Positions 8,835 to 13,910 of a DNA stretch of 20,000 nt are shown here, one piece after another; within the stretch, counting starts at the first letter, position 1, and the number at the start of each line of letters is the position of its first letter. A program made the translations under genes and the position numbers. The stretch lies in the IMG/VR virus record IMGVR_UViG_3300028888_000118. The stretch is one strand, 5' to 3'. The stretch is from an uncultured virus (IMG/VR IMGVR_UViG_3300028888_000118) (taxonomy: Duplodnaviria > Heunggongvirae > Uroviricota > Caudoviricetes). The notes under the pieces were generated by a model that saw only the letters and a list, made by a program, of their open reading frames with translations, made no database searches and had not been told where the DNA came from.

Positions 8835-9536
8835 TTACACAAGCATATCTTTAACTTTCTGATCACTGAGCCATGTAGGAAATTCTTTAAGCAAATCCTG
8901 ATAAGTAATGTTTTCTGCCTTACTTACTGCAAAAAAGTCAGCATTATCCACGTACCGACCTTCCAGATTATCTAGGCTTTCCAGATAGCTAAACTTTGAA
9001 TCACCGAGTCCTACAAATTGCCAGAAAATAGGTTTCTTTGCGGCTTCAATAATTGTTGCTGTTGTATCCGTTTTATCATTGTCGAAATTATCTCCATCTG
9101 TAATAAAAATAACATATACAGGCAACTTCTCATTTTTATAAAATTTAATGATATCTCCCATAACTGGGCTATAGTTTGTTCCGCCCATGCTCTTTCCTTT
9201 TGTTTCCCGCTTAATGTATCCGTCCAGATTATTCAGATTTGCATCTTTAAGTCTACGACAACTATCAGAAAAAAGCCACGTTTCCATACTACCATCATCA
9301 TCAAAGTTCATTGCAAGCGGTAGCATTTTTTCAACAACTCTCTGAACAGTTCCGTTGCTATACAACCAATCCATAGAACCGCTGTAATCAAGAACAAGTG
9401 CTACTTTTGCTTTGAGATCAATTAGTGGCTTCTTGTCAAGACATACTTTATGTACTTCCTCTTTTGCAAGATTCACTTTTTGTACAAGACTTGTTTCATC
9501 ATTGTCTTTTTTCTTGAACATATCAAAAATTCCCAT
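8835..9536 (-). CDS. vWA domain protein (vWA-TerF-like)
   Basis: MIDAS DYSGSM, GGTNYSP, FITDG, PIFWQFVGLG, RYVDNADFF. Confidence 0.88.
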   Translation of the reverse strand: MGIFDMFKKKDNDETSLVQKVNLAKEEVHKVCLDKKPLIDLKAKVALVLDYSGSMDWLYSNGTVQRVVEKMLPLAMNFDDDGSMETWLFSDSCRRLKDANLNNLDGYIKRETKGKSMGGTNYSPVMGDIIKFYKNEKLPVYVIFITDGDNFDNDKTDTTATIIEAAKKPIFWQFVGLGDSKFSYLESLDNLEGRYVDNADFFAVSKAENITYQDLLKEFPTWLSDQKVKDMLV

Positions 9537-9566
9537 TATAAAATTCCTCCGTAGTTATTAAAATAG

Positions 9567-9640
9567 CATGGGAGCGAGGAATCGAACCCACTAATCTTGC
9601 AGTTTTGGAGACTGCCGTGCTACCATTACACTACTCCCCT
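9567..9640 (-). tRNA. tRNA-Trp (CCA), degenerate acceptor and T stems
   Basis: GCAGT-CTCCAAA-ACTGC arm and D arm intact; mismatches in the T stem (GTGGG/CCTCG) and at acceptor position 2. Confidence 0.75.
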
Positions 9641-9648
9641 ATGTTTAA

Positions 9649-9891
9649 CTAATCGGTCGATCCGTCAGGATGATCTTCAAGCCACTCATAATAAAAATCA
9701 GCTTCATAATACCAATTTTCTTCTACTTGAATCCAATGCCATTCAGCGTCAGAAAAATCATAGTTTTCAAACTCATAACCATAAATTTGATAATACTGCT
9801 CACTTTCGTTCATTGCTTCGATACGTGCAGTGTCCTTTGCTGTATTTCGGTTGTATGATTTTTTACGGTAATATTTTTTACCATGATTCAT
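9649..9891 (-). CDS. hypothetical protein (basic N-terminus, acidic/aromatic C-terminus)
   Basis: ATG at 9891 behind AAAGAGGTG; 80 aa. Confidence 0.6.
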   Translation of the reverse strand: MNHGKKYYRKKSYNRNTAKDTARIEAMNESEQYYQIYGYEFENYDFSDAEWHWIQVEENWYYEADFYYEWLEDHPDGSTD

Positions 9892-10057
9892 AACGCACCT
9901 CTTTATTGTTGTATCCGCTGTTCTATATCCAACCATCTCCGCAGATATGGCGGCTCTTCATTATCCATATAATGCGAACTTCCGGTGTCCGAATGACACA
10001 GCGTAGGCAAGCGGCTTACCTATTTATAGATTATTATAAATTATACAGTATGATTAT

Positions 10058-10783
10058 TTAGTATTCTTCATTAACTAAATAACATTTAACTGCAACCACA
10101 CCAATATTTTGAAACGGGCAGTTATTTGCATTCGTGTAGAAGAAATCTATTGTTTCGTTTGCATCAATTGTCATGTTTCCAACTGTTACATCTTCCGATG
10201 TAGAACAGTCATCTAAATAATAAAGACCGTTCATTTCCGGAAACTCCGGAATCTCTAAATATACAACTGTTCTATTTCCATGTAGGTTATATCCTAATTC
10301 AGTATATAGGAAATAACTTGCAACTGATCCTTTTATAATTCCGTCACCGACTGAACAATCAATCAGCGGTCTAAGTGATCCACCTTTAATTCCAGAAGAA
10401 CCACAATAGTATGTGCCATGCGTAAAAACTTTATATACAGCATCATACACCATTCTACACGAAGCACTTTGATCTGATACTACACAACTCTCTGTCACAG
10501 TAGTATAAACTGTTGTTTCAATAACAGGAGTTTCAGTTGTTGTAGTGGTCGTAAATGTAGTTGTTGTGATCGTAGTTGTTTCAGTCGTTGTTGTTTCTGT
10601 TGTAGTAGTTGTTGATAGTGTTGTTGTATCACTAGAACACATTGACGTTGTTTCAATATGCAATACATCTGAATCTGAATCAATTGGCATTTTGAATAAT
10701 TTTGCAAGTGCTACTGTACACGCAATAGCGATAAATATAAGAAAACATATTGCAGTAATATATGATGTATTTTTACTATTCAA
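10058..10783 (-). CDS. membrane-anchored Thr-rich protein with 3D-domain-like C-terminus (putative cell-wall binding/lytic)
   Basis: N-terminal hydrophobic helix, poly-Thr linker, C-terminal TYY..G, GLYYLDDC, IDFF motifs resembling 3D domains; TTG start behind GAAAGGA. Confidence 0.65.
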   Translation of the reverse strand: MNSKNTSYITAICFLIFIAIACTVALAKLFKMPIDSDSDVLHIETTSMCSSDTTTLSTTTTTETTTTETTTITTTTFTTTTTTETPVIETTVYTTVTESCVVSDQSASCRMVYDAVYKVFTHGTYYCGSSGIKGGSLRPLIDCSVGDGIIKGSVASYFLYTELGYNLHGNRTVVYLEIPEFPEMNGLYYLDDCSTSEDVTVGNMTIDANETIDFFYTNANNCPFQNIGVVAVKCYLVNEEY

Positions 10784-10808
10784 CTAATTCAATCCTTTCG
10801 ATCTAAAA

Positions 10809-11097
10809 CAGACTCAAAAACACGGCATACTCTGCAAATAACAGCGTATGTGTCCATCCGTGAAACCTATCTGCTATTGGTTTTTTAATAATGAAAGGAG
10901 TACCAGAATGGGTACGGAGTTGGTTTTGCTAACAAGTCTCAAAAACAGCTTACTATCTGAAACCTAACTTGTTTGGTTTTTTTACAAGTGCAGTTAGTAT
11001 TTATTCATAATCTGCAACTGAAAGTTTCATATGTTAATCAAACTCAATCGGATGCTAAAACAGTATTGCTACTGAAACCTCTCCGCCAGTGTTTTTT
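10809..11097 (-). ncRNA. three-copy structured RNA motif (candidate)
   Basis: Units at 11097-11049, 10983-10931 and 10886-10809 share AAAAAAC, AGGTTT and TTTT(T) loops with different but complementary stems. Confidence 0.7.
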
Positions 11098-11126
11098 AGT
11101 GTAAGAAAGTGAGGATAAGAAAATGT

Positions 11127-11200
11127 TGGTTTCCCTAGCAGGACTCGAACCTGCGATACTGGAGTCAAAGTCCAGTGCCTTACCACTTGGCGATAGGGAA
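11127..11200 (-). tRNA. tRNA-Gln (TTG)
   Basis: TTCCCTA/TAGGGAA, CTGGA-CTTTGAC-TCCAG, encoded CCA. Confidence 0.93.
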
Positions 11201-11203
11201 GTA

Positions 11204-11407
11204 TCAACCCTCATCCACAAGATCGTATTCGCACCAGTCATTTTCCAGTGCTTCTCTTGCCGCGCCGTAGTAATCATCTCTTGTCGGTTCGTATGCGTCA
11301 TATTCTTCTTCATTGTCGTAAGTGTCATCAGTATTATTAAAATGCCACTCTCTAGCTTCATCCTCATCAATATAAATTGTTGTTTGCCATGTGAATTTCA
11401 TTTCCAT
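11204..11407 (-). CDS. small highly acidic protein
   Basis: 67 aa, rich in D/E and aromatic residues; GAAAGGA RBS; first gene behind a promoter. Confidence 0.7.
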   Translation of the reverse strand: MEMKFTWQTTIYIDEDEAREWHFNNTDDTYDNEEEYDAYEPTRDDYYGAAREALENDWCEYDLVDEG

Positions 11408-11433
11408 AATTAAACATCCTTTCTTATTGTTTT

Positions 11434-11462
11434 ATTATAGCACACTTTCTTGAAAAAGTCAA
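11434..11462 (-). promoter_or_regulatory. sigma-A-type promoter
   Basis: TTGACT-N17-TATAAT with extended TG. Confidence 0.88.
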
Positions 11463-11479
11463 TATGTTTCTGAAAAAAT

Positions 11480-11746
11480 TCAATATTCGATCATGAATAT
11501 GAATTCATCGCCATCAACTTTATCCAACATTTCTTCAAGTGCAGAACTTGCTGAATAAATCATATCCTTGTCTTTCAAGTTATATGTGCGTTCAAATTCT
11601 CTACACCACCGATCAAGTTTCTGTTCAATTGTATCAGCGTTTATAAGATATAGCTTTTCGTATTCAGGAAAAGATAAGAACTGTTTTACTGCGAATCTTA
11701 CGTTTTCATCAAAATCTGACTCTGTACATAGTGCAATATTCTTCAT
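11480..11746 (-). CDS. hypothetical protein
   Basis: 88 aa, GAGGTG RBS. Confidence 0.7.
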   Translation of the reverse strand: MKNIALCTESDFDENVRFAVKQFLSFPEYEKLYLINADTIEQKLDRWCREFERTYNLKDKDMIYSASSALEEMLDKVDGDEFIFMIEY

Positions 11747-11787
11747 ATAATCACCTCACATTGAGTACATAACCTCTTTACAAATAT

Positions 11788-11816
11788 AGTATATCATATT
11801 TTTTATAGTTTGTCAA
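11788..11816 (-). promoter_or_regulatory. sigma-A-type promoter
   Basis: TTGACA-N17-TATACT with extended TG. Confidence 0.88.
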
Positions 11817-11846
11817 GTAGTTTTTGAAATTTTTATATTTTAATTA

Positions 11847-12983
11847 TTATCCATTACCTTTAGCCGCATTACAACTTCTACACAACATTTGAAGATTATT
11901 TTCAACTGTCTTTCCGCCCTTACTCCACGGAATGATATGATCACCATGCATATCAGAAAAGCTATATTCAGTATCAATACCATTTGCCATACAGATAGCA
12001 CACTTATGACCTTGTTTTTCATAAACACGGCGTTTCATCTGATCTGGAAATGTTCTGATAGACAGATATTTCTCATCTGCAAAAGTGCGGTCAGAAAGAA
12101 CATACGGAATAATTCCTGCCTGCTTCGTTACATCTTCATCCTGAATAAGTTTATCAATAACTGTACGCATTTCATTTGTATTATACTGCTTATTACGATA
12201 CTTATTGTAAAGTATTCCCCACTCTTGACCTTCAGTAAGTTTCTTCTGCATATTTGGAAACATACGCTTTGCCCAAGAGATCACTTCCTGAAAATATAAC
12301 CACAACTCGTTTGCGTCCATATCGTGTTGATGAATAGCCATGTATTTTCCGCCAGACGATAATCCGTCACGATCTGCAATCCATGCAAGAGCCTTTTCAA
12401 GATAATCCTGCCGGATAGGATTTCCTTTAATAAATCCGTCAGCCATTTGTCCTGCAACACAATTCCTCTTACTGAAATAGTTCTTTGCATCTGAAAGCCA
12501 TGTTCCGGCGTAAGTTGCATTAAGAAGTTCCTGATTTGTAAGAGTCTCACCTGCAATATTGATTACCTTAAACCATTCCAGTTTTTCTTCTTCCGTACCT
12601 TCGCAGATATAGATTGTCAGTTCATAATCTTTGATCTGCTGTTTCTCATTATCTGTAAGGTTATGAAAGAACTTATCATTACCGTTAATCTTGATAGCAA
12701 AATCGCCATTAAGGTACTGAGCAAGAGAAATTGTTCTCTGCTGTCCATCAAGAACTTCGTAAGTATCACTACCTGTTTTATTCCAGTACATAATATTAAG
12801 AGGAAATCCTTTACGAACAGTTTCAATTACCATATCTCTTTTCTTGTCGGTATAGCAAAATTCTCTTTGGAATGACGGACGTATGCAGAGTCTACCACTG
12901 TATCCGTATACCCCACCATCACCATCGTCAGTATATCCTTGACAGAGTTCAGATACTTTGATCTTTGTTTCTGTGATTCGCAT
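11847..12983 (-). CDS. DUF262 (GmrS/ParB-like) + HNH endonuclease
   Basis: RPSFQREF, VLDGQQRT and F..IN.AG..L motifs of DUF262; C-terminal CAIC...DHIIPWSKGG...NLQMLCRSCN HNH. Confidence 0.9.
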   Translation of the reverse strand: MRITETKIKVSELCQGYTDDGDGGVYGYSGRLCIRPSFQREFCYTDKKRDMVIETVRKGFPLNIMYWNKTGSDTYEVLDGQQRTISLAQYLNGDFAIKINGNDKFFHNLTDNEKQQIKDYELTIYICEGTEEEKLEWFKVINIAGETLTNQELLNATYAGTWLSDAKNYFSKRNCVAGQMADGFIKGNPIRQDYLEKALAWIADRDGLSSGGKYMAIHQHDMDANELWLYFQEVISWAKRMFPNMQKKLTEGQEWGILYNKYRNKQYNTNEMRTVIDKLIQDEDVTKQAGIIPYVLSDRTFADEKYLSIRTFPDQMKRRVYEKQGHKCAICMANGIDTEYSFSDMHGDHIIPWSKGGKTVENNLQMLCRSCNAAKGNG

Positions 12984-12984
12984 A

Positions 12985-13890
12985 TCAAGCACCTACTTTC
13001 TTACGAATAAGAATACGAGAATAAGGAATTTTGTCACCGATAGCTAACATCTTTTTACCATTAGCGTGATGCCAGCCTGTAGTATCGACATAACTGCCAA
13101 CATTTAACTGCCCCATAATGTCAAACTGTTCAATACAATGTTTATCTAAAAATGAAAGAGGTACACCCATAATACCATCAAAATCAACAGGTATATCAGA
13201 TACTTTATCAACATTGATAGCATCATAATTATCATATTTCGGATATTCTTCGGGCGTATAATTCTTCCAAAGAATGAGTTTTTCGTGACGCTTTGCAACA
13301 TCTAAATTTGAATACCAATTTATGTTTCCGAATTTCTTAATTGTTCCATCGGGTTGTACAAATTCATGTACATTTGTGCATCCAAGCCACATATCGCCTG
13401 ACATTAAAAAGGGAAATACTTCTTTATATTTAATGGCGTTCATACTTCCGATAATCAAAAACTTCTTCTTATGTTCCATCAGAACAGCCACATACTCACG
13501 GAACAGGCTGAAAGGCGGGTTAGTTACCACAATGTCTGCCTCATCAAGCAAGTCAAGACATTCCTGATTTCTGAAATCGCCGTTACCTTCAAGTGGAGTC
13601 TTTACACCGACCTCAATATCGTTATCATCGCCACCCATATATTCCATCTTATAGGTAGGCTCATTTTTGTCATAATGTGTGGAAATCAGCTTCTTGAGAC
13701 AAAGTTCTGCAAAGTTCAGATGAAAATACTTCCAGAATGCCGACCATGTAGGATCATCGCAGTTGCAGAGAACGATCTTATCTTTGAAATGTTTCTTATA
13801 GTGCATCAGTTCTTTAGAAACATCAGTAAGTTGTGTATAGAATTCATCATTCTTCTGTGTTTTTGCTCTGTGAAGATTTGCATTTTTCAT
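12985..13890 (-). CDS. adenine-specific DNA methyltransferase, EcoRI family
   Basis: KNDEFYT, CNCDDP, GDFR, VVTNPPFSLFREY, YPKYDNYDAI motifs. Confidence 0.92.
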   Translation of the reverse strand: MKNANLHRAKTQKNDEFYTQLTDVSKELMHYKKHFKDKIVLCNCDDPTWSAFWKYFHLNFAELCLKKLISTHYDKNEPTYKMEYMGGDDNDIEVGVKTPLEGNGDFRNQECLDLLDEADIVVTNPPFSLFREYVAVLMEHKKKFLIIGSMNAIKYKEVFPFLMSGDMWLGCTNVHEFVQPDGTIKKFGNINWYSNLDVAKRHEKLILWKNYTPEEYPKYDNYDAINVDKVSDIPVDFDGIMGVPLSFLDKHCIEQFDIMGQLNVGSYVDTTGWHHANGKKMLAIGDKIPYSRILIRKKVGA

Positions 13891-13910
13891 AATTACCATT
13901 CCTCCACAAT

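Follow-up and report, generated by a model that had tools for sequence, protein, structure and literature searches.

A structured RNA family of phage tRNA islands represented by three units downstream of a tRNA-Gln gene

A 343-nucleotide (nt) gap between a tRNA-Gln gene and a 241-amino-acid (aa) open reading frame (ORF), located at 10784-11126 of a 20,000-nt stretch of an uncultured virus (IMG/VR record IMGVR_UViG_3300028888_000118; the whole stretch is denoted here as the window), harbors on its minus strand three units of a small structured RNA, U1 to U3. All three are copies of a genuine RNA family that Rfam does not contain. In total, 14 units were found in seven contigs, i.e. the three in the window and 11 spread over two large IMG/VR phage records and four metagenome contigs, and all 14 lie inside tRNA islands, on the tRNA strand. 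Phage tRNA islands hold several enigmatic RNAs, such as GOLLD, ROOL, and theta ribozymes, and the cutting and upkeep of the long mixed tRNA/mRNA transcripts of these islands are poorly understood. Tentatively, and at somewhat less than an even chance, the units are regarded here as a cis-acting pseudoknot module that punctuates or stabilises such transcripts. With ~50 nt, a clear consensus, and covarying stems, the module is compact enough for direct biochemistry.

Three units in the gap and their relatives

U1 to U3 show a common layout of A6-7C(C), a stem S1, AGGUUU, a hairpin S2, U4-5(G)AG, and the 3′ strand of S1 (S1′). U1 (11049..11097, minus strand) is divergent, with only one C after the A-tract (A6C, 11097-11091) and the 3′ loop UUUUAGCA, which follows S2; its S1 (CGGA, 11085-11082, with UCCG, 11052-11049) and its S2 (CAGU, 11074-11071, with ACUG, 11064-11061) comprise 4 base pairs (bp) each, and AGGUUU is found at 11080-11075. 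U2 (10931..10983, minus strand) consists of A7CC, a 7-bp S1 (AACAAGU/ACUUGUU), AGGUUU (10965-10960), a 3-bp S2 (CAG/CUG), and UUUUUGAG. U3 (10807..10886, minus strand) contains A6CC, a 7-bp S1 including G-U pairs (AGCAGAU/GUCUGUU), AGGUUU (10868-10863), and a 5-bp S2 (CACGG/CCGUG) that encloses a 32-nt inner hairpin and is again followed by UUUUUGAG. The features of the family (A-tract with CC, S1, AGGUUU, S2, U-run with GAG, S1′, and location on the tRNA strand) are found in the window units, which reach 51.5 (U1), 63.5 (U2), and 62 bits (U3) with the covariance model R1 introduced below. An earlier note on this DNA had placed three units at these positions of the minus strand, which reading of the sequence confirmed; among its stem calls, the U3 core CAGA/UCUG was correct, whereas S1 of U2 has 7 bp, one more than claimed. 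The hairpins it had described between the units are likewise seen in predicted folds of the gap: spacer 1 (10984..11048, minus strand) is predicted to form two local hairpins, and spacer 2 (10887..10930, minus strand) contains a terminator-like hairpin (10915-10900) and a box, CUCCUUUC (10900-10893), that resembles an anti-Shine-Dalgarno (anti-SD) sequence. The gap is non-coding, with all six frames closed and 7-9 stops per minus-strand frame. The pattern AAAAAACN{8,14}AGGTTTCAN{10,40}GTTTT matches exactly the three units in the window, and 0 of 200 dinucleotide shuffles give any match.

Searches of Rfam 15 with gathering thresholds on the window, at E values up to 10 on 10600-11300, and at E values up to 0.1 on five related loci returned only tRNAs and chance matches; the family, which the earlier note had not recognised, thus matches no known Rfam motif. 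A blastn search of GenBank phages with 10700-11300 gave 357 records whose similarity was confined to tRNA-Gln, and megablast of the whole window gave a single match, a tRNA-Pro. A literature search yielded no description of the motif; the supplements of PMC10690425, with 10,006 candidate viral structured RNAs, lay outside this search.

Relatives were obtained from metagenomes and from IMG/VR. A metagenome scan with the canonical consensus gave 46 loci, five of which, in four contigs (L082, L083/L084, L100, and L120), pair both stems. Scored with R1, a covariance model built from nine units, these five reach 51-76 bits and the best of the remaining 41 reaches 29.9 bits. An IMG/VR record of 201,895 bp (G001; reached via RecA, 74% identity) carries one unit, 5 nt before the tRNA-Lys that is the first gene of its array, and a record of 207,349 bp (G155; locus L069) carries two. 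Overall, R1 sets the real units, at 51-76 bits, apart from chance loci selected by the pattern, none of which exceeds 32 bits (sets of 75, 79, and 80 loci); L069a, L069z, and L100z score low (32.1, 24.6, and 24.4 bits) and were accepted on structure and context. A second model, R2, rebuilt on 13 units, revealed no additional copy, whether in the window or in the two phage records searched in full. The pairs L082/L083 and L100a/L120a are orthologous. The earlier note had proposed a covariance-model search of gut phage genomes as a check; relatives with covarying stems were found in large gut phages.

Further scans added little. The first IMG/VR pattern scan gave 75 loci, of which only L069 was real, as recognised with the models, and an IMG/VR scan for z-type units gave 68 loci, of which only the L069 contig already known passed inspection by eye. 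In bacterial and archaeal genomes, 80 of at least 121 loci were scored; the best R1 score was 30 bits, none was counted as real, and R2 gave no match at E values up to 0.01 on 46 of these 80. With R1, 150 genomes from the same class as an Oscillospiraceae metagenome-assembled genome gave 0 matches among the part of the candidates that was scored. Locus L333 was rejected as a member, its 7-bp AT-rich S1 being compatible with chance. L144:1498-1556, on the IMG/VR fragment G156, shows A5CC, an 8-bp S1, AGGUUU, and UUUUUGAG and scores 39 bits with R2; it is located immediately before a Shine-Dalgarno (SD) sequence, with three tRNAs 4.5 kb downstream. L144 is possibly an outlying member and was excluded from all counts because the locus had been pre-selected by the search pattern. 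Judged from these contigs, the known range of the family appears narrow and is confined to large Firmicutes-type phages of ~200 kb, which form a small clade and inhabit ruminant and other guts.

Covarying stems, conserved loops, and a putative pseudoknot

S1 is present in 11 different sequences, and on 13 units 95.0% of its cells are standard pairs (95-96% across alignments), compared with 28-43% in a control with a slid partner. In the same 13 units, 27 cells differ on both sides, and 0 of 500 shuffles attain the covariation score. The 13-unit alignments derive in part from a fit to the model, and their members are related sequences. When RNAalifold is applied to a plain MAFFT alignment, it predicts the identical six S1 pairs, with compensatory changes in five. 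The first pair of S2 is C-G in 10 of 13 units and the second is A-U, C-G, U-A, or U-G, while beyond these two pairs S2 is unit-specific (2-8 bp; loops or inserts reach 48 nt) and tolerates insertions of 32-48 nt. In L082b (L082:1124-1200 vs L083:4076-4103), a 48-nt S2 insertion is flanked by an 11-nt direct repeat, AGGTTTCTTTG, and the unit still scores 51-55 bits. Invariant or nearly so are A5-7CC (RAACC in divergent units), AGGUUU, the closing C-G pair, and U4-6GAG. An A-tract precedes the stem-loop in 14/14 units and the 3′ strand of the U-rich loop has U3-U6 in 14/14; the 5′ loop strand has UUU after GG, with UUUUU in L076a and UUC in L100z. Selection on RNA structure, as proposed in the earlier note, is borne out by the six other contigs, which keep both stems although the sequences differ and hold the loops fixed.

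The top S1 pair is U-G in six units and S2 of L100a and L120a contains G-U, and because of these pairs the RNA is assigned to the tRNA strand. At the level of sequence comparison, the family, its strand, S1, and S2 are demonstrated. The same pairs bear on a DNA-level explanation, in which the units would be a selfish repeat or a weak bidirectional terminator devoid of an RNA function of their own: G-U pairs of the tRNA strand correspond to A-C mismatches in the complementary strand, and likewise in DNA hairpins. Such a repeat could explain why the units act as shuffled modules at recombination joints, why the contig of one strain diverges at the 3′ edge of U3 (joint 10633/10806), why units and their surroundings contain small insertions with direct repeats, and why each unit ends in a T-run on the plus strand. 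However, the loops are invariant across paralogues with diverged stems, and the plus strand of the gap folds no better than its shuffles (z -0.81, 20/100 equally good; minus strand z -2.27, 1/100). Stems with 6x8 internal loops make poor terminators, and a terminator scan flags none of them. This explanation is considered highly unlikely.

Minimum free energy (MFE) folding recovers S1 and S2 in U1 and U3, and U2 takes an alternative MFE fold. An outer helix around the unit is predicted for some members (U3, L100a, L120a, and L120z) and is not consistent across units.

The divergence of the stems also argues against a type III toxin-antitoxin antitoxin RNA or a mimic of it, an idea of the earlier note that is not sustained. 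As tandem structured repeats that have an A-rich stretch and could form pseudoknots, the units do recall ToxI. Yet they are not near-identical tandem repeats: both stems differ (mean column identity 62%), the units stand 114 and 97 nt apart, the spacers being unrelated, and relatives carry single units beside tRNAs. The flanking ORFs have no Pfam, PHROG, ToxN/AbiQ, or PADLOC toxin match, so that no endoribonuclease gene of the ToxN/AbiQ/CptN type is found nearby. Hence, an antitoxin function is exceedingly improbable.

A tertiary element may be superimposed on the two stems. AAACC can pair with GGUUU in one register in 13/14 units, giving 5-8 contiguous Watson-Crick pairs; the exception is U1, where the A-tract and GGUUU could pair in a shifted 4-bp register. 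In L100z, GAACC faces GGUUC, i.e. an A-U pair is replaced by G-C. The sixth pair is A-U in L076a and L100z, U-A in L120z and L069z, and an A·C mismatch elsewhere, and in L076a the helix reaches 8 bp. With the strand order A-tract, 5′ strand of S1, GGUUU, S2, U-run, and 3′ strand of S1, the arrangement is that of a classical H-type knot, whose first loop would measure 3-6 nt and second loop 1-2 nt, the third being formed by S2 plus U5GA. The earlier note had suggested pairing of the A-tract with GGUUU. This is possible in the 13 units and two compensatory events speak for it, but the support for an AAACC:GGUUU pseudoknot is modest; the evidence is thin, though not nil, because the letters of the A-tract and of GGUUU are nearly invariant. 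Pairing of the A-tract with the 3′ U-run was rejected on steric grounds, as only 2 nt would have to span a 5-bp helix; this argument draws on established pseudoknot geometry.

Since the U-run would run parallel to the A-strand, as a Hoogsteen strand must, a U·A-U triple helix is possible; it is sterically plausible and relies on invariant letters. This brings the units close to expression and nuclear retention elements (ENEs), such as those of PAN from Kaposi's sarcoma-associated herpesvirus and of MALAT1, which according to PMC7583470 stabilise RNAs via a triple helix, the clamped A-tract being the 3′ poly(A) or an A-rich tail. Like ENEs, the units show a stem-loop with an internal loop, here U-rich on its 3′ strand, a bordering C-G pair (the closing S2 pair, C-G in 10/13 aligned units, corresponds to the G-C border of ENE-type elements), and a cis A-tract able to enter the loop, and by analogy the proposed role would be protection of an RNA end. 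In contrast to ENEs, whose A-tract is located 3′, that of the units is located 5′, comprises 6-7 nt, and is followed by CC, which would pair with GG; the number of U in the 5′ loop strand is 3, or 5 in one unit, compared with ~5 in ENEs. ENEs are also eukaryotic-viral elements, whereas the unit, with its putative triplex, would protect a 5′ end in a bacterium. A reversed phage version of the ENE clamp can be envisaged, in which the 5′ A-tract in the U-rich loop would pair by Watson-Crick bonds with GGUUU and by Hoogsteen bonds with the opposite U5, cap the 5′ ends of mRNAs and of tRNA precursors after processing, and stall RNase J-type exonucleases. We consider it rather improbable. If true, it would be the first triple-helix RNA stability element and the first element resembling an exonuclease-resistant RNA (xrRNA) described in a phage, and triple-helix RNA protection would extend from eukaryotic viruses and long non-coding RNAs to phages. 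If the clamp is not real, the units still represent a new class of cis-elements for the annotation of gut phage genomes.

Position in tRNA islands and possible functions

Six units (L076a, L082a, L082b, L083b, L120z, and L069a) end 5-13 nt before the 5′ end of a tRNA, which is Lys-UUU in three cases, Ile-UAU in two, and Gln-UUG in one. L100a and L120a are followed by a conserved ~190-nt structured spacer and then by tRNA-Asn. L100z and L069z are found between the stop of an ORF and the next promoter. Within the window, another unit comes next after U1 and U2, and the SD of the ORF after U3. Upstream tRNAs are separated from the units by 29 nt (U1) and 33 nt (L120a). Six units lie 24-82 nt after strong sigma-70-type promoters of the form TTGACA-17-TGnTATAAT/TATACT, as read by eye. 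The earlier note, which had the tRNA-Gln of the window upstream, lacked this key context: the motif is one of tRNA islands and, in the relatives, usually heads rather than trails a tRNA. From the placement in islands, the shared strand, and the promoters upstream, the units thus appear to be modules of polycistronic tRNA/mRNA transcripts that are shuffled between relatives.

In most units, a pyrimidine-rich, anti-SD-like box (CUCACUUUC / CUCCUUUC / ACCUCCUUU) is located 8-20 nt upstream of the A-tract. It is present in 8 of the first 12 units tabulated and in both L069 units (loci L069, L082, L083, L100, and L120), and it matches three times on the minus strand of the window, where two of the three matches precede U1 and U3. 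The box before U1 (CCUCACUUUCU; 11104..11120, minus strand) also precedes L100z and L120z. A reading of the CUCACU box as a T7-like promoter was rejected, since G001 has no PF00940 match (control genomes also have none) and the box is not enriched there. Programmed frameshifting on AAAAAAC plus the knot was discarded as well, given the 7-9 stops per frame and the placement before tRNAs in relatives, and by eye the consensus does not fit a K-turn, a CsrA site (GGA), or boxA.

In the proposed mechanism, the unit would be transcribed on the tRNA strand within the polycistronic transcript and form a hairpin of a lower stem S1, a fixed internal loop (5′-AGGUUU / 5′-UUUUUGAG), and a variable S2. The 5′ A-tract with its CC, 3-6 nt upstream, would pair with GGUUU of the loop to form an H-type knot stacked on S1, leaving the opposite U-run free to brace it. 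Located 5′ of a tRNA, another structured RNA, or an ORF, such a compact knot could define and protect the new 5′ end that arises from endonucleolytic cuts, e.g. against RNase J, the 5′-to-3′ exonuclease of Firmicutes hosts; RNase P might then free the unit as part of the leader. The position before tRNAs, the structured spacer, or the ORF, the tolerance of S2 to insertions, the knot topology, and the occurrence of RNase J in such hosts are consistent with such punctuation. A comparable role, namely to block a 5′-3′ exonuclease by means of a small knot, has been proposed for coremin/xrRNA-C (PMC10520033). The coremin consensus given there (a 4-bp hairpin with a YGAD/YGNNAD loop, an 8-10-nt spacer, and a second hairpin) is entirely different: by reading, no hairpin loop of the units fits YGAD/YGNNAD, and the spacer is absent.

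Several points weigh against the punctuation mechanism or the evidence beneath it. The protective or processing role is inferred from position and fold only. Approximately 24 invariant loop nucleotides are left unexplained by it, and conservation this extreme points to a ligand, a protein, or a tertiary fold by which they are specifically recognised. L100z and L069z, placed between an ORF stop and a promoter, fit poorly, and a tRNA is already a stable 5′ block, before which a shield is not obviously needed. The pseudoknot hinges on few events, the two compensatory changes, and the complementarity of individual units does not differ significantly from that in shuffles of the A-rich flank. Folding z-scores of the single units are weak (-0.88, -0.75, and -2.10 for U1, U2, and U3); as thermodynamics alone is weak, the case depends on the comparison of homologues. 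There, the shuffle controls overstate independence, because most units stem from a handful of related phages, and L120z, which was counted by synteny, by eye, and by flanks shared with L100z and L069z, is found by neither R1 nor R2. In one RNA run (X24), exact contigs cover 9634-9833 and 10574-10741 and none covers 10800-11120, which is evidence neither way.

The ~24 invariant nucleotides at the junctions of varying stems are reminiscent of aptamers and lead to the alternative of a regulatory leader, in which the knot would sense a small molecule or factor, or act on RNA polymerase itself as a processive antiterminator like put of HK022, and thereby steer read-through or translation of the downstream RNA. 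An H-type knot with a U-rich strand is the architecture of six triplex riboswitch classes (PMC7583470). As in SAM-II, SAM-V, and preQ1-II/III riboswitches, the units would form a small H-type knot with a U-rich strand by an A-U-rich helix, and as in preQ1-II a hairpin is embedded in the last loop; in contrast to them, the U-run is located in the 3′ loop instead of loop 1, and neither an Rfam match nor an expression platform is found. The SAM-II, SAM-V, preQ1-II, and preQ1-III models gave no match at E values up to 10 on the region and up to 0.1 on the five related loci, and no other riboswitch or antiterminator of Rfam matched. The distance of six of the 14 units from promoters agrees with a leader, and for a put-like antiterminator the promoter-proximal location fits these six only; the three tandem units of the window lie more than 300 nt from their promoter. 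U3 is flanked by the anti-SD-like box and the SD of the next ORF, which are predicted to be able to pair, and a terminator-like hairpin stands between U2 and U3. However, no expression platform is conserved and no terminator follows S1′. These riboswitches reside in the 5′ untranslated region of a metabolic gene with the SD in the knot, whereas for 12/14 units the next feature is a tRNA, another RNA, or a promoter, and an ORF comes next only for U3 and the doubtful L144. We know of no riboswitch that controls tRNAs or other RNAs of the kind following most units. Altogether, a regulatory leader is judged possible, although unlikely.

Somewhat less probable still is a trans-acting product, a knot-bearing leader or spacer that would persist after RNase P/Z processing as a small RNA binding a protein or another RNA, with the three units of the window forming a multivalent sponge. 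Units located 5-13 nt before a tRNA would leave with the 5′ leader via RNase P, and sponges derived from spacers of tRNA precursors exist (3′ETS-leuZ). The invariant, single-stranded-looking A6 and U5G tracts resemble Hfq/Sm-type sites; the partner could be an Hfq-like factor, or a host tRNA-directed nuclease for which the RNA is a decoy, and the three-copy array is kept in related strains. On the other hand, the loci seen share no consistently linked protein gene, only 1-2 units are present in most genomes, and the A-tract and GGUUU look mutually paired rather than free.

A new small self-cleaving ribozyme cutting the island transcript, as theta (HDV-like, i.e. hepatitis delta virus-like) ribozymes trim tRNA trailers, would agree with the small size, the invariant junction nucleotides, the variable peripheral helices, and the pseudoknot, and the strand order a-b-a′-hairpin-b′ resembles an HDV-like fold minus P3. 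Theta ribozymes are likewise small structured RNAs tied to tRNA genes in gut Caudoviricetes of Bacillota, with a proposed role in processing tRNA transcripts, and set a precedent for ribozymes beside gut-phage tRNAs (PMC10879173). HDV-like and theta ribozymes form a nested double pseudoknot of P1, P1.1, P2, P3, and P4, with a catalytic C in J4/2 and a cut within ~5 nt of the tRNA 3′ end. The units lack this double pseudoknot core: P3/L3 is absent, as only 1-2 nt lie between the 5′ strand of S1 and the 3′ strand of the pseudoknot, and no conserved C occupies a junction corresponding to J4/2. Nor do the units abut tRNA 3′ ends; they are located 5′ of tRNAs or ~30 nt 3′ of them (gaps of 29 and 33 nt), and no Rfam ribozyme matches. 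A ribozyme is very improbable on these grounds. GOLLD and ROOL are also phage non-coding RNAs of unassigned function near tRNA islands, ROOL being known from the rumen, but they are ornate RNAs of 500-800+ nt forming nanocages (PMC12286853), whereas a unit has 50-110 nt and matches neither in Rfam.

Some islands contain further insertions and RNAs. The ~190-nt spacer downstream of L100a and L120a (L100:1165-1355; L120:673-862) is closed by a stem of ~18 bp; nothing in Rfam matches it, and it probably represents a further structured RNA that is not yet catalogued. The tRNA-Ile(UAU) of L082 carries a ~78-nt insertion in its anticodon loop (L082:1211-1365 vs the uninterrupted L083:4115-4190), possibly a small tRNA intron or an insertion element; ARAGORN miscalls part of this gene as tRNA-Tyr(ata). 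Between L083a and tRNA-Lys, a ~106-nt insertion with short direct repeats at its joints is found (L083:3063-3178 vs L082:775-782, where the gap is 8 nt). L076:16086-16245 contains a tRNA-like gene with a matching acceptor stem, terminal ACCA, a T arm, and a long internal insertion, for which ARAGORN gives no call.

Flanking features and the phage

The tRNA-Gln(UUG) gene upstream of U1 (11127..11200, minus strand; ARAGORN; Rfam tRNA, 68.5 bits) has the same orientation as the units. A candidate sigma-70-type promoter, TTGACT-17-TATAAT with TG (11434..11462, minus strand; 11/12 matches in a consensus scan), heads a 67-aa ORF, tRNA-Gln, and then the three units. The 241-aa ORF (10058..10783, minus strand) has a TTG start (10783-10781) and an SD, GAAAGGA (10799-10793), 7 nt past U3, which is predicted to pair with the box at 10900-10893. 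Its product has an N-terminal hydrophobic segment, a long Thr-rich low-complexity linker, and no family match; the ORF is regarded here as a downstream neighbour of the units. In one related strain, ~170 nt (10634-10805), covering the 5′ part of the ORF and its leader, are replaced, the replacement beginning at the 3′ edge of U3.

The window comes from a large phage whose G+C content is 37% and whose genes are nearly all on the minus strand. Its products include clamp-loader subunits, RecA/UvsX, a UvrD-type helicase, and a guanylate kinase, and 13 tRNA genes are dispersed across 5.8-11.2 kb (ARAGORN). The identity of its RecA to RecA of Streptococcus, Bacillus, and Clostridium phages in GenBank is at most ~43%. 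The stretch 9500-12500 is present in gut metagenome runs and is entire in one sheep-gut run, from which the window may originate. DNA contigs of three other gut runs span 10806-11156 with an identity of ~93% (goat gut), ~91% (labelled 'gut metagenome'), and ~95% (a third coded run), and the three-unit block is therefore regarded as kept in related strains. Among the substitutions listed for these strains none is inside the units, and hence no covariation was drawn from them.

Two further neighbourhoods were observed on the minus strand of the window. Inside the tRNA island, a vWA-TerF-like protein is encoded (8835-9536; PF10138, E 5e-64). At 11847-13899, an EcoRI-type adenine methylase (PF13651) is followed directly by a GmrSD_N/DUF262-HNH protein that matches the PADLOC type II restriction enzyme model (E 3.5e-125).

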